A stretch of 24,000 nt of DNA from Collinsella sp. (lineage in GTDB: Bacteria > Actinomycetota > Coriobacteriia > Coriobacteriales > Coriobacteriaceae), in contig JAXIZI010000035.1 of NCBI GenBank assembly GCA_036304065.1, forward strand, positions 7,626 through 31,625. The letters are read 5' to 3'. Shown here piece after piece: positions 1-19,011 of the stretch. The notes below the pieces were generated by a model, which was not told the origin of the DNA, did no database searches, and saw nothing but the letters and a program-made list of their open reading frames with translations. A program made the position numbers and the translations under genes. Within the stretch, counting starts at the first letter, position 1; each line of letters starts with the position of its first letter.

Positions 1-39
1 GCCCGCCTCTTTCCGTTGTGCGATTTCGATTTCCCACGG

Positions 40-135
40 CTAGTCCCGGTCGTCGTCGCCGGCTGCGCAGCAGGCGTAGGCCGTGAGCGTGAGGAGCCCC
101 ATGAGGAGCCCTATTCCGAAGGGCGCGAATCCCAT
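40..135 (-). CDS. Possible 31-aa small hydrophobic peptide (MGFAPFGIGLLMGLLTLTAYACCAAGDDDRD)
   Basis: An internal ATG of track ORF 40..642 is preceded by a strong SD (GAAGGAGGTGGAAGG-ATG). The product is one predicted TM helix plus an acidic tail. It overlaps the sortase 3' end by 25 nt in another frame. The longer track ORF is an R/G-rich shadow. Confidence 0.3.
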   Translation of the reverse strand: MGFAPFGIGLLMGLLTLTAYACCAAGDDDRD

Positions 136-842
136 CCTTCCACCTCCTTCGCGTAGACGACGGTGCGCGAGTTGCTCGTCTGGTAGCTGCACGTCACGAA
201 GGCCCAGGCCTGCGCGACGTCCGCCGGCTCTTCCAGGACGACCTCGCACCGGGACAATTTGTCCCCGAGGTAGGCGTCGAGCTCCGCAGCGTCGGCGAAG
301 TCGGTCCGCTTGCCCTCCGAGCTCGCGTCGACCACGTCGGCCGCGAAGACCTCGAGCTCGATCTCCTTCTCGCGGGTGTAGACCCGGATGGTGCGGTGCC
401 CCTCGGCGAAGCCGCGCGACGAGTACTGCGCGAGCGGCGCGAACATGGTGCCGTCGGACATGTGGTGCCCGTAGACGATGACGAGCGGGCTCTCGGCGCC
501 CTGCGCGCACCCGGCGTCTATGTAGGGAGCGCCCCATGCCGATCTCCCGCCGTCGGAGTCGTGCGTGAGGTAGAAGTCGGGCGATTCCGGCCGGCCCTGG
601 ACGATCGGGTAGTCGACGGTCGTGCCCGGCACGCGCACCCATGCGACGACGGAGGCGGGAAGGGCGTCCCAGTCGATGCCTCCTCCCGTCTCTTTCATCT
701 CCATTGTCGCGTCCTCTTCCGCGGCGGGCACCTCGCGCACCACGTACGGGTTCCTCTCGGGCTGCGGCAGGACGGCGAGCGCCGCCAGCGCCAGCAACGC
801 CACGGCGACGGCGAGCGCCGTGGCGGCTTTCCCTTTGTTCAT
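111..842 (-). CDS. Class B sortase (cysteine transpeptidase)
   Basis: N-terminal TM anchor (AATALAVAVALLALAALAV). Sortase B-like motifs are present: IVYGHHMSDGTMFAPLAQY (His), FVTCSY (catalytic Cys) and NSRTVVYA (Arg). SD GGGGGAGGAG lies before the ATG, and the gene sits directly downstream of the wall-anchored adhesin gene. Confidence 0.85.
   Translation of the reverse strand: MNKGKAATALAVAVALLALAALAVLPQPERNPYVVREVPAAEEDATMEMKETGGGIDWDALPASVVAWVRVPGTTVDYPIVQGRPESPDFYLTHDSDGGRSAWGAPYIDAGCAQGAESPLVIVYGHHMSDGTMFAPLAQYSSRGFAEGHRTIRVYTREKEIELEVFAADVVDASSEGKRTDFADAAELDAYLGDKLSRCEVVLEEPADVAQAWAFVTCSYQTSNSRTVVYAKEVEGWDSRPSE
251..265. repeat. Copy 1 of the 15-bp perfect palindrome GGGACAA-T-TTGTCCC (inside the sortase CDS)
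   Basis: Read directly from the sequence. On the coding strand it is GAC AAA TTG TCC = DKLS, in frame (YLGDKLSRC). Confidence 0.95.
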
Positions 843-914
843 CTCCTCCCCCGTTCGCAGGGGAGGCCCCGGGCGGGCGCCCAGGGCCTCCGGTTCGGTG
901 TCGATGCGGCGCTG

Positions 915-3656
915 CTATTCTTCTGGCTTTTCAGCAGGCTCTTCGGCCGCCTCGTCCTTGCTTGCGCCGGCCGTCTTGCGCTTGCGGTACGCGAGCGCCC
1001 CGCCCGCGCCCGCCGCAGCTGCCAGAGCGATGCCCGCGGCCGCGGCGTAGCCGGTGGCGTCGGGGGCGTCGGCCCCGGTCTTGGCGTAGGGCTCCTCGGG
1101 CACCTCGGGCGTGTCGGGGTTGTCCACGACGACGCTCTGCTCGGCGGAGCCGATGTCCTCGTGGGTCGCAACGACGTTGCCGGCGGAGTCCAGGACCTTC
1201 TCGAAGACGACGAGCTCGTCTCCCTCGGCCAGGCCCTCGGTGTCGAACTCGAAGGTCACCTCGACGGTGCCGGAGGGCGCCTCGGGCTCGAAGGGCGTGC
1301 GCGCGGTCACCTCGTTGCCGTCCTTGTCGAGGAACGGCTCTCCGGTGCCCTTGTCCATGAGCGTGCCCACGGCGATGTAGGTCTCGCCGGGGACGAGGCC
1401 CTTGTAGGCCACCGTGTCGACGACCTTGGCCTTGCCGGCCTCGATGACCTGGTCGCCGTCTGCGGCGTCGGCCGCCTGGGTGCCCACCTCGACGGCGACG
1501 TGGACGGTCTGCCCCTCGTCGGAGAGGTCCGCGTGCGACGCCACCTCGGCGCCGTCCTTGCGAAGGCTCTCGAACACGACCAGGTCGCGGCCGCCGAGCA
1601 GGCTCGCGTCGAAGGAGATCTCTACGTCCTGGCTGCCCGTCGAGAGCGCGGGCGCGAACTCGGCCTTGGCCCCCACGGGCTTGCCCGAGGCGTCGGCCAC
1701 GGGCTCGCCGGTCGCCTTGTCGACGAGGGTCGCCGAGAGCTCGTACTCCTCGCCGGCCTTCAGCCCCTCGTAGGCCACCGCGTCGACGACCTTGGCCTCG
1801 GCGTCGGCCGAGACGTCCTTGTCGCCGTCCGCCCCGTCCTTTGCCGTGGTGGAGATGCGCGGGCCCTCCTGGTCGTCGAGGCCCATCCACACGGCCTTCG
1901 CGACCGTCGAGTCGCGATCGACCCAGAAGCTCCTCGTGATGAGCTCGAGGCCCTCGTTGGCATCGCAGCGCAGCTCGGTCATGGTGTAGGCGCCGTACGG
2001 CAGCGCCGCCAGCGAGTCGTCGACCGGCGCCGAGGAGCCGTCCTCGCCGAGCGAGAACCAGATGCCGGCCTTCGGGTCCATTTCGGCGGCCCCGATCGGG
2101 CCCTCATGGCCGAGCAGGGCGTCGTTGGCGTTGGTGTCCCTCGAGTGCCTGTTCCAGCTGCTCGCGGTCGACGCGTCGCCGTTGCGGTCCGTGACCAGCA
2201 CGTGAGTCTCGCCGGTTGCCTCGTTCTCGATGGCGAACGGGACCATGAGGCCGGCGTTGTCGGACTCGCTCTTCTTGGAGAGCTCGAGGTCGTTGCGCAC
2301 CACCTGGTCGCGGAACTCGAGCGCGTCGCCGTCCTCGGAGGCGCTCACGATCTCGCCGCCGGCGCGGACCTCGAAGGTGCGGGGCTCGCCGTCGGTCAGC
2401 AGGTAGCTCCCGTTCGTCGCCGTCTCCCGCACGTCGTAGGTCCCGTACGGCAGTGCGTCGGCCGCGGTCTGCGCGGTGTAGGCGCCGGCCTCGTCGTTCC
2501 ATGCGGTGGTCAGCGTGGCCACGGCCTCGCCCGGCTCGCGCCACTCGCCGTCAACGAGGACCTTGTGCGCCGAGCGGTTCGTGACGGTGAACTCGATCCC
2601 GTCGAGGCCGGGGTGCTCGCCAGGCGCCTCCTTGTGGGCGCTGCCCGCGAGCGCCTCGGACGCCTGCAGCTCCTTGTCGGACTTGGTCACCTGCACGCCG
2701 CCGCGGAAGACCTCGTCGGTCACGGGGTCGCCCGTGAGGTCGCATACCTCGCCGGCCTTCACGGTGAACGCGACGGGGGCGTCGCTGGCGTCGTAGCCCT
2801 CGGGCGCGCCGGACTCGACGATGCGGTAATTGCCCGCGGGAAGCGCGTCGGCGCCGGTCGCGGCGACGTGCGACCCGTCCTCGGGCGCGGTCTTGATCGT
2901 GGCGCACGCCTCGCCGTCGGCGTAGTACTCGCCGCCGACCAGCACGTAGCGGCCGGTCTCGTTCACGACGGAGAAGCTCGCGCCGTCGAGCGAGGCGTCG
3001 CCCTGGGGCTCGGCGCCCGCCTCGGAGTCCGTTTTGGCTACCTTGACTCCGCCCGTGGACCAGCTGAAGCTCACGAGTGTCTGGGAGCCGCCGCCGGTCC
3101 TGACGCAGAACGCGTCGAACCCGGCGGAGACCCTGCCGGCGCCCGCCTTCATCTTGGCGAAGGTCCCGCCGATCAGCTCGGATTTCGCCCAGGAGGCGAA
3201 CTCGGCGCTCGTGCCGTGCGTGGCAGCCGACTCGGACCCAGAGTAGGCGTAGGCGATGAGCACATGGCTCGCCGCGGCGTACTTCGCGTCGTCCCAGCCG
3301 CCGCCGTCGTACCAGCTGCCCGGGAACATCGACGCGTCGAAGCCGGGAGAGCCGAACGAGTACCAGATCGCCGCTGTCACGTCGCCGCTCGGCACGGGGC
3401 TCGTCGAGTAGGAGCCCGGCTCGGGCGTCGGGGACGAGGGCTCGGCGCAGTAGGCGATGTTCCCGTCGGCGCTCATCCATGTGGTGGCGAAGCCGCCGTA
3501 GGGGATCTTGCCGCCTATGGACACGTCGACCGTGCTCGGCGCGGCGTAGGCGGGCGAGGCCGCCACGGAGGCGAGCAGCGCCCCCGCCGCCAGGATGAGC
3601 GCCATGGCGCATCGGAGGAGCTTTTCCTGCAGGGTGCAGTCTTTCGCTGCGTTCAT
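915..3656 (-). CDS. Wall-anchored adhesin: signal peptide, thioester (TQXA-type) domain, Cna-B/SpaA-like domains, two VaFE repeats and a C-terminal sorting signal
   Basis: Signal peptide MALILAAGALLASVAASPAYA. Candidate thioester Cys (NIAYCAEP) and Gln (GGGSQTLVSF). Cna-B-like segments (GASFSVVNETGRYV, GIEFTVTNRSAHKV). Two repeats of about 110 aa end in DLVVFESL and ELVVFEKV. The C-terminus reads PYAKTG, then a hydrophobic stretch, then YRKRK. SD GGGAGGCGGAAAG lies before the ATG. Confidence 0.85.
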   Translation of the reverse strand: MNAAKDCTLQEKLLRCAMALILAAGALLASVAASPAYAAPSTVDVSIGGKIPYGGFATTWMSADGNIAYCAEPSSPTPEPGSYSTSPVPSGDVTAAIWYSFGSPGFDASMFPGSWYDGGGWDDAKYAAASHVLIAYAYSGSESAATHGTSAEFASWAKSELIGGTFAKMKAGAGRVSAGFDAFCVRTGGGSQTLVSFSWSTGGVKVAKTDSEAGAEPQGDASLDGASFSVVNETGRYVLVGGEYYADGEACATIKTAPEDGSHVAATGADALPAGNYRIVESGAPEGYDASDAPVAFTVKAGEVCDLTGDPVTDEVFRGGVQVTKSDKELQASEALAGSAHKEAPGEHPGLDGIEFTVTNRSAHKVLVDGEWREPGEAVATLTTAWNDEAGAYTAQTAADALPYGTYDVRETATNGSYLLTDGEPRTFEVRAGGEIVSASEDGDALEFRDQVVRNDLELSKKSESDNAGLMVPFAIENEATGETHVLVTDRNGDASTASSWNRHSRDTNANDALLGHEGPIGAAEMDPKAGIWFSLGEDGSSAPVDDSLAALPYGAYTMTELRCDANEGLELITRSFWVDRDSTVAKAVWMGLDDQEGPRISTTAKDGADGDKDVSADAEAKVVDAVAYEGLKAGEEYELSATLVDKATGEPVADASGKPVGAKAEFAPALSTGSQDVEISFDASLLGGRDLVVFESLRKDGAEVASHADLSDEGQTVHVAVEVGTQAADAADGDQVIEAGKAKVVDTVAYKGLVPGETYIAVGTLMDKGTGEPFLDKDGNEVTARTPFEPEAPSGTVEVTFEFDTEGLAEGDELVVFEKVLDSAGNVVATHEDIGSAEQSVVVDNPDTPEVPEEPYAKTGADAPDATGYAAAAGIALAAAAGAGGALAYRKRKTAGASKDEAAEEPAEKPEE

Positions 3657-3668
3657 CTTTCCGCCTCC

Positions 3669-4127
3669 CTATCTCTCGACGCTTCGCTGGGCGCGGGGCG
3701 CCTCGTGCTCGGCGGCGCGGCTCGCCTGGCGGGCGTGCTCGGCGCGCTCCGCGAGGTAGCGCGAGCGCCCTGCGTCAACGGCCTCCTTGAGCTGCGCCGG
3801 CATGACCTTCACGGTGTCCTTGACCGCGCGGCCGCCCTCGTCGAGCTCGGGCTGGCCGTCCGGGCCCATCACCGTCTTCCTCAGCCACACCTCGCGGTTC
3901 GCGAGCAGCGGTATGTCTCTGAAGTCGGCCCCCTTGAAGCGGCTCTCGTTCACGAACATGGGGCTGAACTCGTAGCCTCCCACGTCCACGCCGTCGACGA
4001 CGGTGCCCTTGGGAAGGGTCGCCGAGTTGAAGGTCCTGGCCTCGCCGGTCGCGCGGTCGGTGTACTCGATGCCCTCGCGCACGAAGCTCTTGTGCAGCGA
4101 GAGGTACACGTTCTTCCTCTCTTCCAT
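3669..4127 (-). CDS. Hypothetical ICE protein (152 aa), family not recognised
   Basis: The start was moved to the internal ATG (MEERKNVYLSL...), which is preceded by AAAAGGAGGAAAGAC. The composition looks protein-like and the gene is packed between the VirB6-like and adhesin genes. Confidence 0.6.
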   Translation of the reverse strand: MEERKNVYLSLHKSFVREGIEYTDRATGEARTFNSATLPKGTVVDGVDVGGYEFSPMFVNESRFKGADFRDIPLLANREVWLRKTVMGPDGQPELDEGGRAVKDTVKVMPAQLKEAVDAGRSRYLAERAEHARQASRAAEHEAPRAQRSVER

Positions 4128-4236
4128 GTCTTTCCTCCTTTTCGTTTTCAATCGGTCCTTGTCTTCATCCGCCGGGACGCGTGCCCCGGCGCGGCGCCCC
4201 TATCTCATGGCGACCGCCCCCTTCCTCGCTTTTCCG

Positions 4237-5238
4237 CTAGAAGCCGCTCACGATGTCGCGCGCCCAGGAGCCGCTCTTCACGAGGGCCAGGATGAGCAGC
4301 GCGCACATGGCCAGGTACTGCAGCGCGTAGGTGAGCCCGTTCGCGACCGCGTCGGCCGGGGTGCCCGTCCCGGGGTTCGCCCCGGTGAGCCCGCCGAGCA
4401 CGAGCGGGAACGATATGAGCAGCACGAGGATGATGACGCCGGCGATGCAGACCGCCCCGAAGCTCTTCAGGTAGCCGAGGCCTATCTGGCGCGTGGCGTC
4501 CATGCCGAGGAACGCCAGCGGGATCGGGGCGAACGCGGCCATGATGTAGAGCTGGAGCGCGCGGGCCCAGCAGACCACGAGGGCGACGACGTAGGCCGCC
4601 AGCACCACGACCCAGCTGATGAGGCTCACGACGAGCATGGCGATGAGCGACGGGATGTCGTCGTCGGTGGTGACGACGGACACCTCGGGCAGGTCGAGCG
4701 CGCCTCCGGCGCCGAAGAGCGCCTCGACTCGGTCGATGGCGAGCCCGCAGACCTCGTAGATCGACGCCATCAGGTCGAAGCTGTTCTGTATGAGGAACAG
4801 GAACACGGCGAAGAACACCAGGAGGAAGACGACCTCCTTGACGCCGGGAAGGCTCTGGCTGCCGTCCATGCGCTGGGATATCTCGATGAGCTTCAGGGTG
4901 AAGACCAGGCCGAGCACCCCGCACCCGATCGGCAGGATGGCCACCTGCCATACGCCCCGGGCGACGTCGTTCATGGTCAGGTCGCTCGAGCTCGTGAGCA
5001 TGTGCGCGAAGTCGGCCGAGAGGATCCCGTTCGCGCCGATCGACCCGAGCACGCCCGTTTGCGCCTTGAACATCCAGTTGCAGCAGTCGCGCAGGAGGCC
5101 GCACAGCCAATCGTTGACGTCCCCGGCTATGTCGGCGTATGCCGGCTGCGCGGGGACGAGCAGGAGCGCGCAGAGGGCGAATGCCGTCGCGGCGGAGATG
5201 GCGAACGCCCTTCGGCGTCGCGATTCAAGCGCCCGCAC
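4237..5238 (-). CDS. Polytopic membrane protein, VirB6/TrbL-like T4SS channel component
   Basis: At least 6 hydrophobic helices (for example VVFLLVFFAVFLFLIQ, IAMLVVSLISWVVVLAAYVVALVV, GAVCIAGVIILVLLISFPLVLGGL). The N-terminal signal-like segment is RRRRAFAISAATAFALCALLLVPAQPAYA. I place the start at GTG 5238, two nt after the upstream stop, with GGAGG 10 nt upstream. The track start at 5349 would overlap the upstream gene by 109 nt. Confidence 0.7.
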   Translation of the reverse strand: MRALESRRRRAFAISAATAFALCALLLVPAQPAYADIAGDVNDWLCGLLRDCCNWMFKAQTGVLGSIGANGILSADFAHMLTSSSDLTMNDVARGVWQVAILPIGCGVLGLVFTLKLIEISQRMDGSQSLPGVKEVVFLLVFFAVFLFLIQNSFDLMASIYEVCGLAIDRVEALFGAGGALDLPEVSVVTTDDDIPSLIAMLVVSLISWVVVLAAYVVALVVCWARALQLYIMAAFAPIPLAFLGMDATRQIGLGYLKSFGAVCIAGVIILVLLISFPLVLGGLTGANPGTGTPADAVANGLTYALQYLAMCALLILALVKSGSWARDIVSGF

Positions 5239-5240
5239 GG

Positions 5241-5960
5241 CTACATCGCCTCCAGCGAGCCGCCGCGCGAGACCACGGTGACCACCGTCGAGGCGGGGTC
5301 GTCGAGCGTGAAGGTCGTCGACGCGACGTTTCCGGCGTAGTCGAGCCACACCTCCTTGTCCCAGGTGGCTCCCGTCGCCCGCGGGGACACCTCCGCCGCC
5401 TTCCCGGCGACGGCCTCCTCAATGGCGGCGGCGTCCGCGCCCAGCGCCTCGGGGAGGCGGTCGTCGGTGCCGGTCACGGAGAACGCTCCCTCGCGTGCCT
5501 TCTGGGGCGCGTACGTCTGCGTCAGGAGGTCGCATGCCAGGGTGCGGTTGTCCCCGCCGCCCGAGACCTGGATGAGCGACAGGCATCCCGCCTTGTCGCC
5601 GGTTCCCTTGACCTCGATGGGCATGCTGAGCACGCCGCCGGCCTCGGAGGGCTCCTCGGCCGAGAAGAACCAGGCGCGCTCGGTGCCGCCCGCGCTCTCC
5701 ACCATGGCGCCCTCGACGATCCGCAGCGTGGCTGTCGGGTCGTCGGCGCCCGTCCATGCGGTGTTCCAGAGCGCCTCGGCGCCCGAGGCGGCCTTCCCGG
5801 TCGCCGCGTCGGCGCCTGCAGCCGCGGGCTGCTCTTGCTCCTGTGGACTATCCTGCGCGCCTTCCTGCGGGGCGATGGCGCAGCGCGCCGCGCCCGCGCC
5901 GAGCGCCACGACGAGCGCGCTTGCCGCGACGGCGGCCATGACCCTTGACTTTCCCTGCAT
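5241..5960 (-). CDS. Secreted or membrane-tethered ICE protein (239 aa), function unknown
   Basis: N-terminal signal peptide (VMAAVAASALVVALGAGAARC) followed by a low-complexity linker. SD TAGGAGAAACCA lies before the ATG. The gene sits between the hydrolase and VirB6-like genes. Confidence 0.65.
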   Translation of the reverse strand: MQGKSRVMAAVAASALVVALGAGAARCAIAPQEGAQDSPQEQEQPAAAGADAATGKAASGAEALWNTAWTGADDPTATLRIVEGAMVESAGGTERAWFFSAEEPSEAGGVLSMPIEVKGTGDKAGCLSLIQVSGGGDNRTLACDLLTQTYAPQKAREGAFSVTGTDDRLPEALGADAAAIEEAVAGKAAEVSPRATGATWDKEVWLDYAGNVASTTFTLDDPASTVVTVVSRGGSLEAM

Positions 5961-5969
5961 TGGTTTCTC

Positions 5970-7571
5970 CTATCTCGCGGTGAGCGCGCAGCTGAAGCTG
6001 CCGATGCCGCTCGCTATGCGGCACACGTCGCCCGTTCGCGGCTCGTGTATGTACCTGTCGTCGCCGATGTAGATGGCCACGTGGCCCGAGCGGTAGAGGA
6101 TGTCGCCGGGCTTCGCCTCCGAGAGCGGTATGCGCCTGAGCTCCTCGTACTGGGAACCCGTGTAGTGGCTTATGCGGATGCCCGCCTGCGCGTAGCAGTA
6201 TTGCGTGAGTCCGCTGCAGTCGAGCGCCTTGCCGGGGGTCGAGCCTCCCCACACGTAGGGCACGCCGAGCTGGCTGTACGCCGCCTCGACGATCGCGTTC
6301 CCGCTCGCGGATGCGTCCTTCAGGTCCTCGACCGTCATGGAGTCGAGCCGGTAGAGGCCCCATTGCGCCATGATCGACTTCAGGGACTCGACGTAGGACG
6401 AGTCGGTCGCCCAGCCGGCGTCCTTGAGCCCCTCGGCCATCCTGTCCGAGTCGCGCCTCTCGATCGCCTCGCGGATGAGGGCGTTGCCCGAGTAGCGCTC
6501 CGCCTGCAGGAAGACCCTGCTGCGGAAGCGGATGCACTCGGCGTCGCCGGTGAAGCGGATGAAGCTCGCCGTGATCTGGGTGTGCTCGCCGGGCACGTAC
6601 TCCTCGCTGGTGGCCCAGTTCGCCTTGCCGGCCACCTCGGGGCAGCCCGCGTAGCCCGACCACCACTTCATGCCGAAGAGGTTGTGGTCGCGCTCTGCGA
6701 GCTGGCTCATGCGGTCGCCCTGGCCGGACTCCTGGATGATCTGCGCGATGGTGCAGCCCGCCGGGTGCCCGTACTCCTCCTGGCACTCGAGCGCCGCCTC
6801 GACCATCTCGTAGGTGATGTAGGGCGGCAGCCCCTCGAGGCCCCGCTTGGAGGCCGCGTCGTCCCAGAAGCCGAACAGCGCGCTCAGCAGCTGCGCGACG
6901 GCGAGCGCGCAGGCGACGAAGGCCACGATGCCGGCCGCCGCCCCGAGCAGGGCGGGCGCCGCGCCCGAGACCGCGCCCGCGATCGCGGAGGCGGCGCCCT
7001 TCGACCCCGCGGCTCGGGCCGCCTCGCCCGACGCCTGCGCGGCCGCCTGGGCCGCCTGGTGCTTGGCCGGGGCGGTCGCGCCGGCTGCCTCGGGGCCGCG
7101 CGCGCCTCCCTTTGGGGCGCCGAGCGCGGTCGCCGCCTTGCGGCTGCCTTGGGCTGCTTTCTTCGCCTTCCTCTGCCGCAGCCTTCCCGCGGCCTTCTCG
7201 GCCGCGCGCCCCGCGTCGTACATGCCCGAGGCGCCCTCGAGCTCCTCCGAGTCGTCGAGCTGGGAGACGGCCTCCCGGGCGATCGCCAGCTTCGCCGCAT
7301 CGACGCGCGAGCGCATCGCGGCCGCCGCGCGCCGGTCGCCGGCTGGTTGGGACAATTTGTCCCCGAGCCCGCCTTCCGGCGCGTCGGGCCTGGATGGGCG
7401 CCCCTTCGCCGTTGCGGCGGGGCCTCCCGCCTCGTCGAGCGGGCCGGCGCCCTCCGAGACGTTTCCCAGGGCGTCGCGCTCGGTCTCCGCGACGTCGCCC
7501 GCGGTGAGCACGTCGCGGCGCCGCGCCCCGACCACCTCGAGCATCCCGCCGCCCTCGCTCGGGCCGGCCAT
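5970..7571 (-). CDS. T4SS-associated bifunctional peptidoglycan hydrolase (N-acetylglucosaminidase/lysozyme-like domain + NlpC/P60 endopeptidase)
   Basis: An Ala/Gly-rich N-terminal region is followed by one TM helix (LLGAAAGIVAFVACALAVAQLL). FlgJ/glucosaminidase-like motifs are present (IAQIIQESGQG, HNLFGMKWW). NlpC/P60 motifs are present (VPYVWGG, LDCSGLTQYCY, GHVAIYIG, IHEP). The start is set at ATG 7571 (GGAGGAATAGGA-ATG), 3 nt after the VirB4 stop. The track ORF extension to 8279 is a shadow over VirB4. Confidence 0.85.
   Translation of the reverse strand: MAGPSEGGGMLEVVGARRRDVLTAGDVAETERDALGNVSEGAGPLDEAGGPAATAKGRPSRPDAPEGGLGDKLSQPAGDRRAAAAMRSRVDAAKLAIAREAVSQLDDSEELEGASGMYDAGRAAEKAAGRLRQRKAKKAAQGSRKAATALGAPKGGARGPEAAGATAPAKHQAAQAAAQASGEAARAAGSKGAASAIAGAVSGAAPALLGAAAGIVAFVACALAVAQLLSALFGFWDDAASKRGLEGLPPYITYEMVEAALECQEEYGHPAGCTIAQIIQESGQGDRMSQLAERDHNLFGMKWWSGYAGCPEVAGKANWATSEEYVPGEHTQITASFIRFTGDAECIRFRSRVFLQAERYSGNALIREAIERRDSDRMAEGLKDAGWATDSSYVESLKSIMAQWGLYRLDSMTVEDLKDASASGNAIVEAAYSQLGVPYVWGGSTPGKALDCSGLTQYCYAQAGIRISHYTGSQYEELRRIPLSEAKPGDILYRSGHVAIYIGDDRYIHEPRTGDVCRIASGIGSFSCALTAR
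7349..7363. repeat. Copy 2 of the 15-bp palindrome GGGACAA-T-TTGTCCC (inside the hydrolase CDS)
   Basis: Read directly from the sequence. It shares 19 identical nt with copy 1 (GGGACAATTTGTCCCCGAG) and encodes in-frame DKLS (GLGDKLSQP). Confidence 0.95.
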
Positions 7572-7573
7572 TC

Positions 7574-10051
7574 CTATTCCTCCGCCTCTCGCGCCGCCCG
7601 GCGCATCTCGCGCTCGGCGACCTCTGCGGGCTTGGTGTTCCACAGGTCGTAGAGCGGGCCTTTCGGGAAGTCGTCGGTGATGGGCACGCGGATCCCGGCG
7701 CTGATGAGCAGGCCCTCGCCGGGCTTGACGGCGTCGCCGATGTAGCCGCGCTCCGTGGCGGAGAGCTGGAGCATCTCCGCCCATGCGTCGAGGTCGGCGG
7801 TGGACTGCTTGTGCAGCAGGAAGAACTCGGAGTTGAGCACCATGTCGCGGGCCTCGGCGTTGGCCAGCATGTGGCTCGTGTTCTGGCTGATGCCGGTGCA
7901 GATGAGGCCGAACTTGCGCCCCTCGCGCCACAGGCGGGCGAAGTACTCGACCACCGTCGGGTGCGCGAAGAGGCTCTGCACCTCGTCGATGTAGAGCCAG
8001 GTGTAGTTGGGGCGCGGCGGCGTTACCATCACGCGGTTGCGCACCATCTCGAGCGCCGTGATCATGCCGAACACGCGCATGTTCTGGCCGAGGCCGTGCA
8101 TGTCGATGTTGGTGATGCGGTTGTCGAGCGCCACGTTGCTCTGGCCGTTGAAGAAGGAGAACGCGCCCTTCACGTAGCGCTCGTAGCGCAGCGCGATGTC
8201 GGCGGCCTCGGGCTCGGGCTGAGCGAGCAGCGCCGCGTGGAAGTCGCCGAGCGTGGGCAGGCGGCCGTCCCTCGCGCACTCCCGGTACGCCTCGCCGACG
8301 CAGCGGGCGATGATCGAGCGGTCGCGCTCAGGCAGGCCCTCGCGGCCCTCGGCCATGAGCGCGCTCGAGAGCGCGAGCACCGCGTCGGTCTTGTACGCGA
8401 GCTTGGCGGCGTCGGCGCGGTCCGCGACGTCGGCGGTGTCGAGGGGGTTGAGCACCGCCGAGCATCCCGGGGCGAGCTCGACGTTCGCGCCGCCGAGCGC
8501 GCCGACGAGGTTGCCGTACTCGCCGGCCGGGTCGAAGATCACGACCTCGTCCTCGGGGTGCGCGAGAACGGTGTTGGTTATCTCGCGCTTGACCGAGAAG
8601 CTTTTGCCCGAGCCGGGCTTGCCGCACACGAAGCCCATGGGGCTCGCCAGGCGCTTGCGGTCGCACAGCACCAGGTTCCCGCTCTCCTTGGACTGCCCGT
8701 AGTAGCCGCCGCCCGCCTCGTCGAGGCTCTGGCTGGCGAAGGGCATCTGCATGGCCACCTGCCCCGTGGTGAGGTAGCGGCTCACGGTGACGTGGTTGTC
8801 ACCGAGCGGGAGCACCGAGTTGAGAGCCTGGCGCTGCCGGAAGTGGAGCGGCTCGAGGCCGATCGTGCAGCCCTGCGCGACGCTCGTCACCTGCTGGACG
8901 CGGCGGTCGAGCTCCTCGAGGCTGTCGGCCCAGGTGTAGACGAGGCCTGTGTAGACGAACAGGCGCTCGGACTTGTTGCGCAGGAAGTCGAGCAGCTCCT
9001 CGGCCTCCTCCTTCGAGAAGCGCAGCTCGGGCGGCAGGATCTGGTAGTCGTAGCCCTTCTTCACGGCGCTCATCTGCTCGTCGATGATCTCCTTGTCCAT
9101 CCAGTCGATCTGGCGCTTCACGAGCGCGAGCGCCTCGCTCTGCGCGATGGGCTGCACGTGCAGCGTCACGTTGAGCGGCAGCGGCAGGTCGATGATGGAG
9201 GCGAGGTAGGTCTCCTCGATGACCGACCCGAAGCTGCGCACCGCGAGCACCGCGCCGTAGCGCCCGTCGCTGCGGAAGCAGTCGGACCTGCCTTCGGGCT
9301 TGAAGTCGAGCGTGGAGGGCATGACGAAGTCCTTCGTGCGCGCTCCCGACGCCGGGGACAATTTGTCCCAGGAGAACTCGAAGCGCGACCCCGGGCGCAG
9401 CTGCCCCTGAAGGAGCTCGAGCCTCTCGGCGCCGTCGAGGGCGCGCGACGAGCAGCGTATGCGCGCGAGCGTCTGCTCCACGTCGCCCCGGATGCGCGCG
9501 AGCTTGGGCACCGCGGCGTCGACGTCGTCGGCGCCCACGGCGTAGGTCAGGTAGCGGTGGCGCACGAGGTTCGAGACGCCCTCGCGCATCTTGTCGTTGA
9601 GGATCCGGTTGTACTCTTCGGCGAGCCCGGCGGTGGCGCGCTCCCCGGGCTCGAAGAAGACCTTGCGGCCGACCTCGTCGGCGGGGATGGGCGCGTTCAC
9701 TACCTGGAGCTGCACGTGGGAGTCCGCCGGGAAGTAGTTGAACAGCGAGCTCATCACGGTGAAGGCCGTCTCGCGCGCCTCCTTGCGCGCGGACTGGTAG
9801 CTGATGTCGGAGAACTCGACCGTCTGGCTGAACACCCCGGGCATCACCTGGGCGATTCCGTCCTTGTACATGGCGTCGTAGCCGACGTAGGCGGCCATCT
9901 CGCGCGAGCGGTCGCGCTCCCGGCGGCGCCTCTGCCGCTCGGCCTCCGCGCCCTTCGAGGCGTCCTTGCGCCCGCCCGTGCCGCCGAGGAGCAGCCCGAG
10001 GGTGCTCGGGCGCTTCGGCCTATTCTCCTTGTTGCTTCTTGCTCGGCTCAT
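7574..10051 (-). CDS. VirB4-like conjugal transfer ATPase (Gram-positive TcpF/Orf16/CD1110 type)
   Basis: 825 aa. Walker A is GKPGSGKS and the Walker B-like region is WLYIDEV. The N-terminal segment YDAMYKDGIAQV...FSDISYQ is typical of this family. SD GAAAGGAG lies 9 nt before the ATG. The 5' end overlaps the PrgI-like gene by 32 nt. Confidence 0.93.
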   Translation of the reverse strand: MSRARSNKENRPKRPSTLGLLLGGTGGRKDASKGAEAERQRRRRERDRSREMAAYVGYDAMYKDGIAQVMPGVFSQTVEFSDISYQSARKEARETAFTVMSSLFNYFPADSHVQLQVVNAPIPADEVGRKVFFEPGERATAGLAEEYNRILNDKMREGVSNLVRHRYLTYAVGADDVDAAVPKLARIRGDVEQTLARIRCSSRALDGAERLELLQGQLRPGSRFEFSWDKLSPASGARTKDFVMPSTLDFKPEGRSDCFRSDGRYGAVLAVRSFGSVIEETYLASIIDLPLPLNVTLHVQPIAQSEALALVKRQIDWMDKEIIDEQMSAVKKGYDYQILPPELRFSKEEAEELLDFLRNKSERLFVYTGLVYTWADSLEELDRRVQQVTSVAQGCTIGLEPLHFRQRQALNSVLPLGDNHVTVSRYLTTGQVAMQMPFASQSLDEAGGGYYGQSKESGNLVLCDRKRLASPMGFVCGKPGSGKSFSVKREITNTVLAHPEDEVVIFDPAGEYGNLVGALGGANVELAPGCSAVLNPLDTADVADRADAAKLAYKTDAVLALSSALMAEGREGLPERDRSIIARCVGEAYRECARDGRLPTLGDFHAALLAQPEPEAADIALRYERYVKGAFSFFNGQSNVALDNRITNIDMHGLGQNMRVFGMITALEMVRNRVMVTPPRPNYTWLYIDEVQSLFAHPTVVEYFARLWREGRKFGLICTGISQNTSHMLANAEARDMVLNSEFFLLHKQSTADLDAWAEMLQLSATERGYIGDAVKPGEGLLISAGIRVPITDDFPKGPLYDLWNTKPAEVAEREMRRAAREAEE
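9355..9369. repeat. Copy 3 of the 15-bp palindrome GGGACAA-T-TTGTCCC (inside the VirB4 CDS)
   Basis: Read directly from the sequence. It encodes in-frame DKLS (FSWDKLSPA). Confidence 0.95.
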
Positions 10052-10445
10052 AGAGCTCGGCTCCTTTCTTCCTTGCCCTGCGCCTCGCGCGACGTCCCGG
10101 GCGGCCCGGGCGCGGCGAGCCCTCGGGGAGGCTCCCGGCGAGGCAGGGCTCGTACGCGAGCAGCTGCGGGGAGAGCTCGTGTGCCGCCAAAAGCGGCAGC
10201 AGCTCCTCGGCGCGCATGCCGAAGGGCCGCCAGAACCCGGCGAGCCAGAACGGCATGCTGCAGAGCATGATCGGGAAGGCCGCGTCCGCGACGTCGGCGT
10301 GCAGGCCCAGGTGGACGAAGGCCGCCGCCCCGACCGCGCTGCCGAAGCCGAGCGACACGCATGCGAGCGTGCGCAGGCTCATCTTCCCGACGATCTTCTC
10401 CTCGTACTCGCCGATGTCCTTCTGCACCGGTATCCTGAGCGCCAT
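10020..10445 (-). CDS. PrgI-family small T4SS membrane protein
   Basis: The N-terminus (IPVQKDIGEYEEKIVGKMSLRTLACV) followed by two TM helices matches the PrgI-family pattern. It is positioned immediately upstream of VirB4, as in enterococcal and clostridial systems. Confidence 0.75.
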   Translation of the reverse strand: MALRIPVQKDIGEYEEKIVGKMSLRTLACVSLGFGSAVGAAAFVHLGLHADVADAAFPIMLCSMPFWLAGFWRPFGMRAEELLPLLAAHELSPQLLAYEPCLAGSLPEGSPRPGRPGRRARRRARKKGAELYEPSKKQQGE

Positions 10446-10457
10446 CCGCGACGCCCC

Positions 10458-10673
10458 CTATGCCGGCAGCCAGGACGTGTCCAGCTGACCGAAGTAGACC
10501 GACGCGGCGATGATGATCGCGCCGCCGGCGATGGTGGATATGGCGGTCGCGATCTGCGGGCCGCCCTGCTGCTCCCTGATGGCCAGGCCGAGCGAGACCG
10601 CTCCCCACACGACCAGGAAGCCGCCGAGGAAGGTCACGCAGCCCGACACGAGCTTGATGACGTTTGCGAGCAT
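10458..10673 (-). CDS. Maff2-family small membrane protein
   Basis: A 71-aa protein with two TM helices (VSGCVTFLGGFLVVWGAVSLGLAI ... AISTIAGGAIIIAASVYF). Size, topology and position between the T4CP and PrgI genes are typical of the family. Confidence 0.75.
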   Translation of the reverse strand: MLANVIKLVSGCVTFLGGFLVVWGAVSLGLAIREQQGGPQIATAISTIAGGAIIIAASVYFGQLDTSWLPA

Positions 10674-10757
10674 GCTGCTCTCCTTTGCTTTCGGTTGACG
10701 ATGTTCCTTGCTGTTCCTCCCCCGCGGCGGGGGAGGCCCGCGCCCGCCGCGGCCCCG

Positions 10758-12623
10758 TCACGAGGCGCCGTCCTTCCGCCTGCGGTACTCCGCGAAGTCG
10801 AACGGGCCTTGGCGGGCGGCCTCCTCGAGCAGGCGCGAGCGCGGGTGGCGCTCGAGCCGGTACTTCCGGTCCATGAGCGGCATGCACCCGTTCACGAGCA
10901 CGAGCGCGTCCTCGCGCGGCATGCGCGCCACCTCGGCGGGCTGTATGAGGTCGCGCTCGGAGATGCCGCGGTTCACGGTCCGGGTCCAGCCGGCGCCCCG
11001 CGAGTCGCTCTGCGTCTCGCTCGCCACCGTCTGTTTGCCGGCCATCTTGCTGATCTCCTCGTTGGTCTCGTTCGCCTTTCCGCCCAGGTAGAGCAGCGTG
11101 TCGCAGGCGTTCACGATGGTCTCGGCGTTGTTGTCGCCGTAGGTCTCCTTCAGCTGCGAGAGAGACTGGGCGATCATCGAGACGGCGATGTTCCGGCTGC
11201 GGGTGACGGCGATGGTCCGCTCGAAGTCGGGTATGCGCCCGATGTTGGCGAACTCGTCGAAGACGAGGTGCACCGTCGTGGGCAGCGAGCCGCCGTGCGC
11301 CTCGAGCGCCTCGGCGCAAAGCGCGCTCACGGCGGTGTCCATGAGCAGGGCGAACAGGAAGTCGAAGGTCGAGTCGGTGTCGCTCATGGACGCGAAGAGC
11401 GCGACTTTGGCGCCCTCGTCGCCCATGTGGGCGAGGTCGAGCTCGTCTTTGGAGGTGAGGTCGCGCACGGCGCGGATGGAAAGCGGCTTCAGGCGGACGT
11501 TGCAGCTCGAGAGCATCGACTTCATGGTGTCGCCGGCGGCCACGCGGAACTCGCGGTAGCTCGCGAGCGCGAAGTCGTCGGGGGGCGCGGGCTCGCGGAC
11601 CTTGACCCACTCCCACGCGCCGTCCTCCTCGGCGAAGCCGCGCAGCGAATCGCCCTCCGCCGAGGCGCCGCCGCGCCTCACGTAGCGCTCGCCGGTCTCC
11701 AGCTCGCGGAACACCATGTCGAGCGGGCTCATGTAGCCCGGGTCGTCGCGTGCGTCGGCGAGCGAGAGCAGCGTGAGCAGCCCGTCGAGGTTTCGGTCGG
11801 CGGGCTCGCAGTGCATGACGAGGTAGGCCGTGAGCGCGGTGTAGACCAGCCGCTCGGCCTTCTCCCAGTAGGGGTCGCCCTTGTGGTCGGCGTCGCCCTC
11901 GGTGTTGGCGACGATGCCGCGGGCGAAGCGGATGACGCCCGCCTCGTCGCGTATGTAGGCTATGGGGTTGAAGCGCATGGAGCGCGTGAAGTCGATGGTG
12001 TCGAACGCGCGGATCTCGTAGCCGAGCTCCGCCAGCGCGCCGCCCATCTCGCGGATGAGCGTGCCCTTCGGGTCGGTCACGAAGAAGCTGGCGTTGGCCT
12101 GCAGGAGGTTCGGCTTGACGTAGTAGCGCGTCTTGCCGGTGCCCGGGCCGCCCACCACGAGCACGTTGTCGTTGGTGTCGGTGGAGAGGTCGAACCTGCG
12201 GCTCACGAGGCGGATGCGCGCGTTGTCGGTGAGGATGATGTTGTTGTCGGGGTCCTTGGCGTCGCCGAAGGGCGCGATGTCCTTGCGCGTGGCCCACCTG
12301 GAGCTACCGTGCTCCTCGCCGTCGCGCCGGGCGCCCTTGGATCCCATGGAGCTACCGTGCTCCTCGCCGTCGCGCCGGGCGCCCTTGGATCCCATGGAGC
12401 GCGCCCAGGCGACGAGCGCCGCGCACGCGCAGGCGGTCCCCGCGCACAGGGGAAGCGCCTCCGTTGAGAATACGCGCCCCGCGCGGAGCGCCGCCGGGAT
12501 CGCCGCCATGGCGGCCTCCGGGTCGAGGATCGGGCTCGTGCCCGACGCCGCAAGGGCCGCGGCCGCGAAGTCTCCCGCGGCGAACGCCGCCGCGGCCAGC
12601 GCTGCCGCCGCCTGCCACCTCAT
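10758..12623 (-). CDS. Type IV coupling protein (VirD4/TraG-like, T4CP)
   Basis: 621 aa with an N-terminal hydrophobic region. Contains HGSSRWAT (the family HGS[AS]RWA motif), Walker A VVGGPGTGKT and Walker B-like LVFDEFAN. The start ATG overlaps the upstream stop (ATGA). Confidence 0.92.
   Translation of the reverse strand: MRWQAAAALAAAAFAAGDFAAAALAASGTSPILDPEAAMAAIPAALRAGRVFSTEALPLCAGTACACAALVAWARSMGSKGARRDGEEHGSSMGSKGARRDGEEHGSSRWATRKDIAPFGDAKDPDNNIILTDNARIRLVSRRFDLSTDTNDNVLVVGGPGTGKTRYYVKPNLLQANASFFVTDPKGTLIREMGGALAELGYEIRAFDTIDFTRSMRFNPIAYIRDEAGVIRFARGIVANTEGDADHKGDPYWEKAERLVYTALTAYLVMHCEPADRNLDGLLTLLSLADARDDPGYMSPLDMVFRELETGERYVRRGGASAEGDSLRGFAEEDGAWEWVKVREPAPPDDFALASYREFRVAAGDTMKSMLSSCNVRLKPLSIRAVRDLTSKDELDLAHMGDEGAKVALFASMSDTDSTFDFLFALLMDTAVSALCAEALEAHGGSLPTTVHLVFDEFANIGRIPDFERTIAVTRSRNIAVSMIAQSLSQLKETYGDNNAETIVNACDTLLYLGGKANETNEEISKMAGKQTVASETQSDSRGAGWTRTVNRGISERDLIQPAEVARMPREDALVLVNGCMPLMDRKYRLERHPRSRLLEEAARQGPFDFAEYRRRKDGAS
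12300..12395. repeat. Perfect 2 x 48-bp tandem duplication inside the T4CP gene, in frame
   Basis: Copies at 12300-12347 and 12348-12395 are identical. They encode MGSKGARRDGEEHGSS twice. A 5-nt microhomology (GGAGC) recurs at 12396-12400. Confidence 0.95.
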
Positions 12624-13171
12624 CTCTCGGGCCCCTCGATATGTCGCGGGCCGCGGTCCCGGCCGGGGCCCTGGCTGTGGGCCCTAGACGCCTCGCGCGC
12701 CCGCTCGGCGCGCTCCGCCAGCCGCTCGGGCGCCTGGCGCCTCTCGGCGATCTCGGAGAGCCGCTCCCTTGCGCGGTCGGCGGCCTTGCCCGTCTCTTGC
12801 TCCAGCTGGCGGAAGGCCTCGTCGACCTCGGGGGCGTCCTCCACCTTGAAGAGCAGCCAGTCGCGGCCCTCGCCTGGGATGATGTGGTGCTCGACCGACG
12901 CGGCGCGCAGCTTGTCGGAGACGACCTCCTTGATCGTCGCGTACTCGGGAAGCCCCGAGAGCTCCTCGAGGCTGAGCTTCGCGTAGGTCGGCGCGCCGTC
13001 GGCCGCGATGGCCTCGGCGCGCCCGCCGGCGATGGTCCCGCGGATTCCCGCGAGGCGCTCGGAGAGCTCCCTCGCGCTGCGCGCCATTGCCTCGGCGCCG
13101 GCCTCCTGGCCGATCCTCAGCATCCAGTCGAGCAGCTTGCCGCCCGCCTCGTCCCCGTAGTCGCTCGCCAT
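12620..13171 (-). CDS. PcfB/DUF3801-like conjugation accessory protein (tentative)
   Basis: 183 aa, directly upstream of the T4CP gene and translationally coupled to it. The family call rests mainly on size, position and general sequence character. SD GGAAGGGAGG is present. Confidence 0.5.
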   Translation of the reverse strand: MASDYGDEAGGKLLDWMLRIGQEAGAEAMARSARELSERLAGIRGTIAGGRAEAIAADGAPTYAKLSLEELSGLPEYATIKEVVSDKLRAASVEHHIIPGEGRDWLLFKVEDAPEVDEAFRQLEQETGKAADRARERLSEIAERRQAPERLAERAERAREASRAHSQGPGRDRGPRHIEGPER

Positions 13172-13197
13172 CCCGCGCCTCCCTTCCAGTCGGGATG

Positions 13198-13220
13198 AAA
13201 AAGGGGCGTCTTCGCGCCCC
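13198..13220 (-). terminator. Intrinsic-terminator-like hairpin inside the ICE gene array
   Basis: The minus strand reads GGGGCG-CGAAGA-CGCCCC followed by TTTTTC. It lies between the stop at 13229 and the pcfB-like start at 13171. Confidence 0.55.
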
Positions 13221-13228
13221 GGTCGTCC

Positions 13229-13762
13229 CTATTCGGCCCCGACGGCCCTCTCGCGCGCCATTGGGGCGCGGGCTTCCTGCCCGGCGTGCGCGCGGCTCGC
13301 CTCGCGGGCGGACGCGGCGCGCTGCGCCAGCGGCTCGGGAGCCTTCTCGTGCAGATGGGCCCACTCGCCGCTGCGGCACTGCTCCGGCGTCGCCTCGCAC
13401 ATGTCGCGCATGGCGCGCTCGAACCGCTCGGGCTCCTGGGCGATGGCGCCGAAGCTCCAGCTCTCGAAGCTGGTCCACGCGTCGCCGTCGCGTTTGAGCG
13501 TCCACCACTCGTCGCCGCCGTTCACCTGCTGGATGAACGCGAGGTCGCGGTAGCAGAACCCCTGGCGTATGGCCCAGTTGCCCGAACCGAGCGCCTCGCG
13601 GAGCCTGTCGACGCTCTCCGTGCGGGAGAACTCGTAGGCGTACTCCTCGAGGAACGGGTCGTCCTGCCAGTCGAAGCCGCCGACCTTGAGCCAGCCGTTC
13701 TCCTGGCACTTCTCCACGAGCTCTTCGTGCTCGCGGCCGGTTATCCTCTCGAAGCCGTCCAT
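13229..13762 (-). CDS. Hypothetical acidic, Trp-rich ICE protein (177 aa)
   Basis: The start was moved to the internal ATG (MDGFERITGREHEEL...), which is preceded by AAAGGCGGAGGG. The upstream part of track ORF 13229..13960 is R-rich and spans an intergenic region. Confidence 0.6.
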   Translation of the reverse strand: MDGFERITGREHEELVEKCQENGWLKVGGFDWQDDPFLEEYAYEFSRTESVDRLREALGSGNWAIRQGFCYRDLAFIQQVNGGDEWWTLKRDGDAWTSFESWSFGAIAQEPERFERAMRDMCEATPEQCRSGEWAHLHEKAPEPLAQRAASAREASRAHAGQEARAPMARERAVGAE

Positions 13763-13913
13763 GGGCCCTCCGCCTTTCGTTTGTTGCTTGGCGGGCGGCG
13801 TCCTCGCGATGGGGGCACGGTGCGAGTCGGAGCAGGCGTGCGTGCCGGCGCGTTGGCGCCGCCCAAGACGTGTATAGCGATTTCGATTGCGGCAGAGGGC
13901 GGGGCCGCCCGCG

Positions 13914-13934
13914 ATGGGTCGAGCTGGGTCGAGC
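13914..13934. promoter_or_regulatory. Tandem 10-bp motif, site A (minus strand GCTCGACCCAGCTCGACCCAT)
   Basis: Two direct CTCGACCCA(N) units with 10-bp period lie in the 201-bp intergenic region between the loader gene and the next gene. The same arrangement occurs at 15953-15981. Confidence 0.5.
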
Positions 13935-13963
13935 CGTCCGCGCCTCCACGGGAAGCGCACAAG

Positions 13964-14752: not shown

Positions 14753-14766
14753 CGGGCGCCCCTTCC

Positions 14767-15282: not shown

Positions 15283-15287
15283 CGGCG

Positions 15288-15536
15288 CTAGTCCCTTCTG
15301 GGCGAGCCGACGGCGCTGTTGCGCTCGACCCATGCGACGAGCTCGTCGTGCAGCACGATGCCGTCGCGCGTCTTGCCGCCGATGTAGCGGATCGGGAACG
15401 GGTCGTCGGGGTCCTTGGCGAGCCGGTACATGGCGTCGCGGCTGATGTGCAGCATCGCGCACGCCTCGTCGGCGCCGAATATCGCGTTGGTCGATGCGAT
15501 GAGCCTCACCTGGCTCCTGCTAGTGCTCTTGGTCAT
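15288..15536 (-). CDS. Small HTH DNA-binding protein (excisionase/AlpA-like family)
   Basis: 82 aa. The segment ACAMLHISRDAMYRLAKDPDDPFPIRYIGGK is typical of HTH_17-like proteins. Confidence 0.65.
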   Translation of the reverse strand: MTKSTSRSQVRLIASTNAIFGADEACAMLHISRDAMYRLAKDPDDPFPIRYIGGKTRDGIVLHDELVAWVERNSAVGSPRRD

Positions 15537-15542
15537 GGTCGT

Positions 15543-15566
15543 CCTCGAGCTCCTTTCGTCTCGAGG
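15543..15566 (-). promoter_or_regulatory. Hairpin enclosing the SD of the 82-aa HTH gene
   Basis: The minus strand reads CCTCGAG-ACGAAAGGAG-CTCGAGG, followed by ACGACC-ATG. The arms are 7 bp, with AAGGAG in the loop and GAGG in the 3' arm. Confidence 0.4.
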
Positions 15567-15614
15567 CTCCCTCGCGTGCCCGGCCGCGGGCGGCTCCCGG
15601 GGCGGTCGCCGCCG

Positions 15615-15833: not shown

Positions 15834-15952
15834 GGTTCCTCCAATCTTCCCGTGCGGCACCGCGCGAGGACACCGCACGACACCGTGTGCCTTTTCGTCT
15901 GCGCGACGATTGAACCGCCTGATGGCGCTTGGCGCGCACGGCGGGAGCGGAG

Positions 15953-15981: not shown

Positions 15982-16031
15982 CCTTCACGAAACGGCCATG
16001 AGCCGCGTGCCTTAGCTCGCGGCTAAGTCCC

Positions 16032-19009: not shown

Positions 19010-19011
19010 AC

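Follow-up and report, generated by a model that had tools for sequence, protein, structure and literature searches.

A dyad-symmetric DNA site dispersed through a widespread actinobacterial conjugation module, with a ParB-family protein as candidate reader

Why does one palindrome recur in three unrelated genes of a conjugative element? The question is raised by a 24,000-nucleotide (nt) stretch of a Collinsella sp. contig (JAXIZI010000035.1, positions 7,626 to 31,625 of the forward strand; here called the window), most of which is occupied by a Gram-positive-type conjugation module. When the whole window was scanned, the 15-mer GGGACAATTTGTCCC was found exactly at three places on the plus strand, and allowing up to two mismatches added no further one, in agreement with the preliminary description of this DNA, which had placed the 15-mer at 251, 7349 and 9355 and nowhere else. 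Since 100 dinucleotide-preserving shuffles gave a mean of only 0.03 matches against the three copies seen, chance was excluded as the origin of the copies. All three are identical, perfect 7-1-7 palindromes (GGGACAA-T-TTGTCCC), and the first two have in common the 19-mer GGGACAATTTGTCCCCGAG, which confirms the 19 identical nt reported before. The copies and the genes that carry them are as follows.

251-265, plus strand: copy 1, exact match, in the sortase gene.
7349-7363, plus strand: copy 2, exact match, at about codon 70 of the hydrolase gene, within a linker of low conservation.
9355-9369, plus strand: copy 3, exact match, in VirB4, at the conserved peptide W-D-K-L-S.
111-842, minus strand: class B sortase (PF04203, E = 1.5e-10), carrier of copy 1.
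5970-7571, minus strand: glucosaminidase and NlpC/P60 peptidoglycan hydrolase (PF01832, PF00877), carrier of copy 2; gene limits taken from the called genes of the related locus L082.
7574-10051, minus strand: VirB4-like conjugation ATPase (DUF87/HerA match), carrier of copy 3.

The family matches agree with the sortase, peptidoglycan hydrolase and VirB4 named as carriers in the preliminary description; homologues of the last are called 'VirB4-like conjugal transfer ATPase, CD1110 family' in their sources. The palindrome in the window is therefore real and lies in three unrelated genes, in every case at least 200 nt inside the gene. On the minus strand all copies read G GAC AAA TTG TCC C, that is, DKLS, within the peptides YLGDKLSRC (sortase), GLGDKLSQP (hydrolase) and FSWDKLSPA (VirB4).

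Is it the peptide or the DNA that is kept? The codons give a first answer. Across 14 genes of the element (4836 codons), TTG accounts for 5 of the 393 leucine codons, three of these five being the copies, AAA accounts for 21 of the 169 lysine codons, and the AAA-TTG dicodon occurs exclusively in the three copies, so the codon argument made previously is stronger than it had been stated. Given the peptide DKLS, the probability of GAC AAA TTG TCC is about 4e-4 per site. Polymorphism points the same way: among 60-73 close relatives (~97% identical; 41-49 distinct sequences per site), 1 of 45 columns varied in the motifs compared with 196 of 900 in the flanks, and 1 of 15 third codon positions compared with 101 of 300 (binomial P of ~2e-4 and ~0.02, respectively). 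The word is thus kept while its flanks vary, the point that an alignment of orthologues had been proposed to test. A sortase only 79% identical, from a derivative without secretion genes (L245-L247; loci compared with the window carry labels of this form), also retains the exact 15-mer.

The alignments also tell how a site is made. Where the window has LGDKLS, orthologous sortases have LGERIS or other peptides without any gap, which indicates that sites arise by point substitution and not by insertion; the change from LGERIS to LGDKLS consists of conservative amino-acid replacements. The VirB4 copy rests on a conserved W-D-K-[LIMV]-S peptide, and this peptide alone explains part of its conservation. 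VirB4 genes with the motif write the serine as TCC or TCG, and those of L065, L078 and L251, which have no arms here, encode the same or a nearly identical peptide with ATA AGT/AGC (WDKIS) or GTG AGC (WDKVS). Pure peptide constraint is excluded. Rare codons, reduced polymorphism, a dyad that persists at shifting positions and in shifting frames, and a site made by conservative replacement together strongly support the view, put forward in the preliminary description, that selection acts on the DNA word and not on the peptide. Two of the arguments used there do not carry over. The three genes do have the frame in common, but this is uninformative, because in no other frame are the third positions of the arms G or C, and these genes have a G+C content at third codon positions (GC3) above 0.9; relatives also carry the motif in another frame (GTICP, GTNCR). 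The common orientation of the central base, offered as a signal, has no weight of its own in our judgement.

Nor is the exact 15-mer, as had been proposed, the selected unit; this is the degenerate dyad GGGACAR-N-YTGTCCC, usually with CT/AG flanks. In elements with 62-75% identical VirB4 proteins, GGGACA-N3-TGTCCC occurs at 2-6 sites per ~22 kb, where our own composition-based estimate is ~0.003 sites, and it is the sole recurrent palindrome with 6-nt arms in the loci scanned. The family form in these diverged elements is RCT-GGGACA-R-N-Y-TGTCCC-AGY, and the genes, frames and intergenic positions in which it lies differ. Only the VirB4 site keeps its position across diverged lineages, with synonymous changes in the centre alone (AAA/AAG, TTG/CTG). 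The site in the hydrolase linker was seen in three lineages, as GDKLS in the window, as GDNLS with a flipped centre in L062 and as GTNCR in the other frame in L071; that in the sortase lies at the N-terminus (DWDSLSQ) in L074 and L075 as against the C-terminus in the window. Sites within the operon of the diverged elements include the following, and further ones lie beside or after cargo genes.

L066 4796, L077 4817, L078 4775: in the 3' part of the winged-helix gene, frame GTICP.
L060 3981, L078 3798: upstream of the first HTH_17 gene.
L060 6239, L066 6808, L077 6814, L074 6804, L075 6722, L078 6472: 18-40 nt upstream of start codons in the operon.

Overall, 35 distinct site contexts were found inside transfer modules and 3 outside. 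All three outside contexts are in cargo that adjoins a module; in ~148 kb of distinct flanking DNA, the host flanks gave none. This comparison of densities inside and outside the element, called for by the preliminary description, covered the flanks of the loci. The sites are non-random, confined to the element, constrained at the nucleotide level and turning over in position. A degenerate copy was seen besides: ctcgGGGAAGCTCTGTCCCaag, with two arm mismatches, at L084 14289, L086 14275 and L089 14292, and in the form GGGAGGCTC at L245 11005, L246 2010 and L247 3339. It lies ~20 nt inside a 645-amino-acid cargo gene placed after the sortase gene and has a ctcg flank in common with copies 1 and 2.

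Could a protein of the host read the sites? The same word is unchanged in hosts of two classes (Collinsella, Eggerthellaceae, Varibaculum, Arcanobacterium), and no element-encoded reader has been pinned down, as would be expected if the element exploited a conserved actinobacterial nucleoid-associated protein or global regulator. This reading is improbable, because the host flanks hold no copies, the three in module-adjoining cargo apart, and because lineage-specific variants of the site exist (GTGACA in L251, GTGACA/GCGACA in L078), which suggest an element-borne reader. We know of no actinobacterial regulator whose site matches the motif.

The anatomy of the site was derived from the 70 half-sites of the 35 distinct sites. 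The half-site consensus is R-C-T-G-G-G-A-C-A-R, with R at -3 in 53/70, C at -2 in 50/70, T at -1 in 55/70 and a purine as the inner base in 67/70, and between the halves lies a single central base pair that is unconstrained. In only 14 of the 35 sites do positions 7 and 9 form a Watson-Crick pair; each half has its own purine, and from this we conclude that the halves vary independently. The lineage of the window and L062 lack the CT/AG flanks and have the centre fixed as A-W-T. Arm position 2 is the most variable one of the arms. Both sites of the L069-L071 lineage have GCGACA in one half; GTGACA is paired with GCGACA at L078 3798, 4775 and 6472 and at L060 3447, both variants always together; and both sites of L251 have GTGACA in both halves, a symmetric change of G to T and C to A. 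Such lineage-specific variants suggest that the reader travels with the element. L251, with a VirB4 75% identical, has no GGGACA site; its two sites are identical CTGTGACAAATTGTCACAGTGGC copies at 743-757 and 2510-2524, in the intergenic DNA of a cargo operon that lies upstream, one gene of which is UmuC/DinB-like and preceded by a GAAC-N4-GTTC SOS-like box.

These features bear on whether the dyad is read as a duplex or as a hairpin in single-stranded nucleic acid, either in the transferred strand, for priming or as another signal, or in the operon mRNA, where it would serve processing, stability or translation. As RNA the site would form a 6-bp stem with a 3-nt loop (-7.4 kcal/mol), and extended intergenic copies reach -17.4 kcal/mol. 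Many copies of the relatives are intercistronic and directly precede ribosome-binding sites or directly follow stop codons; arms of 10-15 nt occur in some intergenic copies (15 nt at L078 6472, which sits within the 33-nt near-perfect palindrome ATAGCTACTGTGACAGTTTGTCGCAGTAGCTAT), and the symmetric change of L251 preserves the pair in both copies, as a stem predicts. An unrelated viral contig, L225, has five hairpin-like GGGGACA-N3-TGTCCCC repeats. Against a hairpin, the stem sequence does not covary but stays invariant among lineages whose proteins diverge by 25-50%. Most arm variants have no compensating change, since six single substitutions break the pair (G-G in L069-L071, A-C, C-A) as against two that give wobble pairs, and positions 7 and 9 follow R and Y in each half-site instead of pairing. 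Relative to transcription, the GTGACA/GCGACA sites of L078 and L060 are found either way round, so that on any single strand one of them has a C-A mismatch. Complementarity or covariation of the flanks beyond position 1 was not above that of shuffles, the sites are followed by no U-tract, and Rfam gave no match at them. Because the halves are independent and the arm variants mostly uncompensated, a homodimeric protein that reads ~17-21 bp of duplex DNA is favoured, and we consider a hairpin rather unlikely.

The repeats of L225 are at 4362, 6902, 8230, 8912 and 9349; one has an arm mismatch, four are intergenic in one operon and one is intragenic. Two of them are followed by GATCTCTT, and their centres do not obey R-N-Y, so they look like a separate regulatory hairpin or site with coincidentally the same arms. 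With the exception of L225, the 15-mer and CTGGGACA-N3-TGTCCCAG occurred in viral contigs almost solely once per contig, that is, as background.

Another possibility considered is that the copies serve as partners in inversions or deletions by site-specific recombination, or that a small mobile palindromic element left them behind as footprints. Copies in one element often have the same centre and are sometimes inverted (L060 3981/6239, L074 10686/20507), and the copies of L071 have 22 nt in common, as copies 1 and 2 of the window have their 19. The shared centres are nevertheless not above expectation (9 of 23 pairs as against ~7 expected by our own arithmetic), any recombination between two copies would cost the element VirB4, the hydrolase or the sortase, and ~70 close relatives have no rearrangement that ends at a site. 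Orthologues without a site have no 15-bp gap, which argues against insertion. A centre of 1-3 bp is too short for the overlap region of a tyrosine recombinase. This origin is accordingly highly improbable, and its variant as a small palindromic insertion (REP/MITE/RPE-like) was rejected, the sortase and hydrolase alignments having codon replacement and no 5-codon gap.

On this evidence the sites are to be regarded as functional cis-acting DNA signals of the element and, most likely, as docking or loading sites for a dimeric protein that the element encodes. The copies in the window are instances of a family-wide dyad duplex site with the half-site R-C-T-GGGACA-R and one free central base pair. 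Selection keeps a few copies per element, and the GC-rich lineage of the window has them written into coding sequence by means of rare codons and conservative changes. An element-encoded dimeric DNA-binding protein would dock or load at these sites, which would act as position-independent 'address' sites and not as promoter operators. We infer the binding of a protein to the sites, its identity and its consequences.

Which protein could this be? The preliminary description had suggested a parB/korB-like gene in the unseen part of the element, and genes for ParA and a ParB_N protein do lie ~2.8 kb to the left of the window in elements that are ~97% identical to it. They were reached by exact-protein look-ups in these elements, and are part of the following group.

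L082 14208-18958, opposite strand, convergent to the secretion operon: mobilisation and partition module comprising UPF0102, a 254-amino-acid ParA, a 318-amino-acid ParB_N protein, a NikA-like protein, a MOB relaxase (PF03432) and a 184-amino-acid protein.

In relatives this module is flanked by changing defence cargo, including type I restriction-modification, BREX, HamA with a DEAD helicase, and AbiE. The 318-amino-acid protein of L082-L089 scores 27.5 bits as ParB_N (cut-off 26.3), has the SGHRR (GxxR) motif and aligns to Spo0J (1vz0) over residues 31-143. Its putative DNA-binding stretch, by our own assignment, contains QTGRxVSGKTIxREE, which is mostly invariant in 11 homologues down to 51% identity, and we take this conserved motif as a parallel to the invariant GGGACA core. 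This ParB-family protein, with its GHRR motif and the short ParA beside it, is the leading candidate reader; it would load at the sites and then see to the segregation of the excised element or influence the transfer genes from afar. A reader of this type is plausible because few-copy, position-independent sites are what such loading sites look like. As in known ParB-loading sites, the dyad is a short duplex site (in the range of 13-23 bp) with identical copies; these copies are confined to the element in the flanks examined, and a ParB-family protein is encoded on the same element in L082-L089, its gene lying outside the window. We consider ParB the single most likely reader, with a probability of about 0.4.

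Several observations weigh against ParB. In L082-L089 the parA promoter and the ~2.8 kb nearest to parB are free of dyad copies, even with two mismatches allowed, and the closest copy is at about that distance. Six diverged loci (L090, L092, L093, L239, L241, L243) were scanned with the relaxed pattern GNGACA-N3-TGTCNC and gave no site closer than 10 kb to parB, their secretion genes being out of range. A site close to the par operon is usual for plasmid systems and KorB, and not obligatory for chromosomal ParB or BisD; none was found here. L241 looks like a mobilisable element and seems to lack type IV secretion genes altogether, the parA promoter carries other conserved palindromes, and the motif follows the secretion module rather than the ParB/relaxase module. 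The pair-preserving change of L251 and the long intergenic arms described above speak for a hairpin instead, and two points on the HTH_17 block given below for another reader. Look-ups centred on ParB led to modules with cargo behind them or to elements that lack secretion genes; the search for sortase homologues gave only relatives at least 79% identical, and a metagenome scan with the L090 sortase gave two short contigs.

The palindromes of the parA promoter were looked at in their own right. The repeats CGTACATATCCGTACG and TTGTCGGACAAATCCGTACGGTTTTGTCC are conserved there (L082 18456-18532, L090 ~9120-9180, L241 ~9100-9190, L243 ~9120-9180) and are probably autoregulatory sites of the par operon; ParB lineages with an extra HTH_17 gene upstream of parA have CGTTCA-N4-TGAACG at the promoter instead. 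The promoter palindrome GGGACAAAACCGTACGGATTTGTCC, whose outer arms are common with the 15-mer, was rejected as a related site as its right arm is not conserved in L241, and TTTGTCGGACAAA was dropped as a dispersed alternative after a single occurrence. No palindrome common to all ParB modules was found.

Dimeric proteins encoded in the transfer module itself are the next candidates, and the sites would then be operators or roadblocks that control transcription or replication of the element, with a winged-helix, HTH_17 or unrecognised protein as the reader.

14767-15282, minus strand: winged-helix, replication-initiator-like protein (phrog_270, 1.8e-5), candidate reader.
13964-14752: DnaC/DnaI-like loader beside the winged-helix gene (phrog_50, 4.5e-48).
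15288-15536 and 15615-15878, minus strand: two excisionase-family HTH_17 proteins (PF12728, TIGR01764) at the head of the conjugation operon, candidate readers.

In diverged lineages the sites cluster around this block: they lie upstream of the first HTH_17 gene, in the 3' part of the winged-helix gene and 18-40 nt before the next genes. Block and sites are both present in L078, L251 and others, and L065, the only lineage without the block, has no site, a correlation that depends on this one block-less lineage. The initiators lambda O and those of the RepA_N type bind repeats within their own genes. In the window, on the other hand, the 5 kb around the HTH_17 and winged-helix genes, and around any obvious promoter, are free of sites, and all three copies are in the middle of structural genes. 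Lineages with the same GGGACA core have widely different recognition regions in their HTH_17 and winged-helix proteins, and the L069-L071 lineage, which has an Xre-type and another winged-helix protein and no DnaC-like gene, still has two sites. Operators of dimeric helix-turn-helix repressors of the tetO type have 7-1-7 geometry, and the dyad resembles them in length, in its one central base pair and in its independent half-sites; unlike them, with their fixed promoter positions, the copies of the window lie mid-gene, at positions not conserved between lineages. Operator-type fixed placement was seen only for a site upstream of the gene for a 183-amino-acid protein, in five lineages; otherwise positions shift between lineages and are not conserved among orthologous promoters. 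We regard these proteins as possible readers, on a tentative footing and behind ParB. Somewhat less likely still, the dyad would be no ParB site, being the address tag of an as yet unrecognised system of recognition that goes with the Gram-positive-type secretion module. Its reader would be a module protein of unknown function, or the dyad would be a duplex or hairpin signal in transfer or in establishment in the recipient, and the GGGACA, GTGACA and GCGACA variants would be specificity codes. Searches of protein families and solved structures found no DNA-binding candidate among the module's proteins of unknown function.

How does the site compare with known systems? In ICEclc, a Pseudomonas element of the integrative and conjugative kind (ICE), the ParB-like CTPase BisD loads at two identical 11-1-11 bisS palindromes in inrR and ssb, and spreads from bisS over ~50 kb (PMC12409273). 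As there, a few identical copies of a perfect palindrome, free at its one central base, lie inside unrelated genes of an ICE that also encodes a ParB-family protein. bisS differs in its length (23 bp), its sequence and its two copies 2 kb apart in a regulatory region, BisD has an extra activator domain, and the host phylum and the type of secretion system are others; binding, foci, spreading and CTP hydrolysis have been demonstrated for BisD, whereas the sites of the window are known from sequence alone. KorB of the IncP plasmid RK2 is a sliding clamp that loads from dispersed OB sites (PMC11790492). Like the dyad, OB (TTTAGCSGCTAAA) is a short odd-centred palindrome dispersed at about one per 5 kb (PMC11790492, PMC13584720). 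Some OB copies are far from promoters, and OB is read by a ParB-family clamp whose gene adjoins that of a short ParA. One OB site belongs to the autoregulated korA-incC-korB promoter, whereas no dyad copy is present at the parA promoter here; partners of the KorA/TrbA type are known for KorB and none was identified here, where the link between ParB and the sites is putative.

Palindromes of 13-16 bp that are tolerated within coding sequence are also known as parS, Noc-binding sites and matS. They resemble the dyad in their position-independent function and differ from it in belonging to chromosomal systems, while the sites described here are confined to mobile elements. matS (GTGAC-RNY-GTCAC) recalls GGGACA-RNY-TGTCCC, and most of all the GTGACA-AAT-TGTCAC of L251, but the sequence differs and the GAC/GTC cores are spaced by N3 in matS and by N5 here; to our knowledge MatP is not expected in these hosts. 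Nothing on the motif was found in the literature on half-sites and ParB sites of actinobacterial conjugative elements.

The carrier of these sites is a common one. Positions 1 to ~16,000 of the window have ~70% G+C, with all genes on the minus strand and a GC3 above 0.9, as against 51-59% G+C in the rest. The operon of this high-GC block begins with the two HTH_17 proteins, the winged-helix initiator-like protein, the DnaC-like loader and two proteins of unknown function, continues with VirD4, a small membrane protein, PrgI, VirB4 and the glucosaminidase/NlpC-P60 hydrolase, and ends with an unknown protein, a VirB6-like protein, a 152-amino-acid protein, a thioester/TQ adhesin and the sortase. 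The module (16-17 kb) is ~97% identical in DNA in about 65 loci.

Window 1-17136: near-identical module, in L001-L058, L064, L067, L072, L076, L079 and L080; the block of identity ends at 17136.

Its hosts are Collinsella, Olsenella, Thermophilibacter, Gordonibacter, Senegalimassilia, Slackia, Paraeggerthella, Eggerthella, Adlercreutzia, Varibaculum and Arcanobacterium, at least 11 genera from two actinobacterial classes, and related ParB and sortase clusters carry names from Bifidobacterium. For the 152-amino-acid protein (3669-4127), an index of public assemblies lists 16,190 blocks. Identity of ~97% across so many genera therefore points to a very recent and very broad spread of the module. 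A megablast of window 1-16000 against a plasmid collection gave no match, and no integrase was seen in the window.

Some observations concern the edges and derivatives of the element. An azaaromatic (yjdF) riboswitch at 17013-17115 on the minus strand (RF01764, 60.8 bits, gathering score 45) directly precedes a DUF2992 gene (16572-16991, minus strand); it appears to be carried along by the conjugative element, because it is inside the ~97%-identical block found in many hosts. Window 17200-24000, of low G+C, is host DNA or variable cargo and encodes a MerR regulator, a CMD and cupin protein, an alpha/beta hydrolase, an FMN reductase, an AAA ATPase and a GyrA/ParC-like subunit. In the derivative L245-L247, AbiEi/AbiEii stand in place of all genes between the DUF2992 and sortase genes. 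In L061 the Trp codon of the VirB4 site, at 10686, is TAG (AGGACAAACTGTCCC), which interrupts VirB4; L061 is probably a decaying element.

The finding matters for the biology of these elements in several ways. The site distorts both codon usage and protein sequence, which would make it a direct handle on the maintenance, silencing and transfer of the element, and as it can be destroyed by synonymous mutations, its role is directly testable. More generally, rare-codon islands in GC-rich genes can expose DNA-level signals hidden within coding sequence. The carrier adds to the importance, its ~97%-identical module being ubiquitous across at least 11 genera and its relatives bearing varied anti-phage defence cargo. 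Were the dyad an address tag, the DNA that it labels would belong to a conjugative element that is among the most widespread in Actinobacteria of the human gut. If some other protein is the reader, the motif would mark an unknown recognition system; if ParB is the reader, long-range control of the clamp type, as in KorB and BisD, would extend to the Gram-positive-type conjugative elements of the gut.

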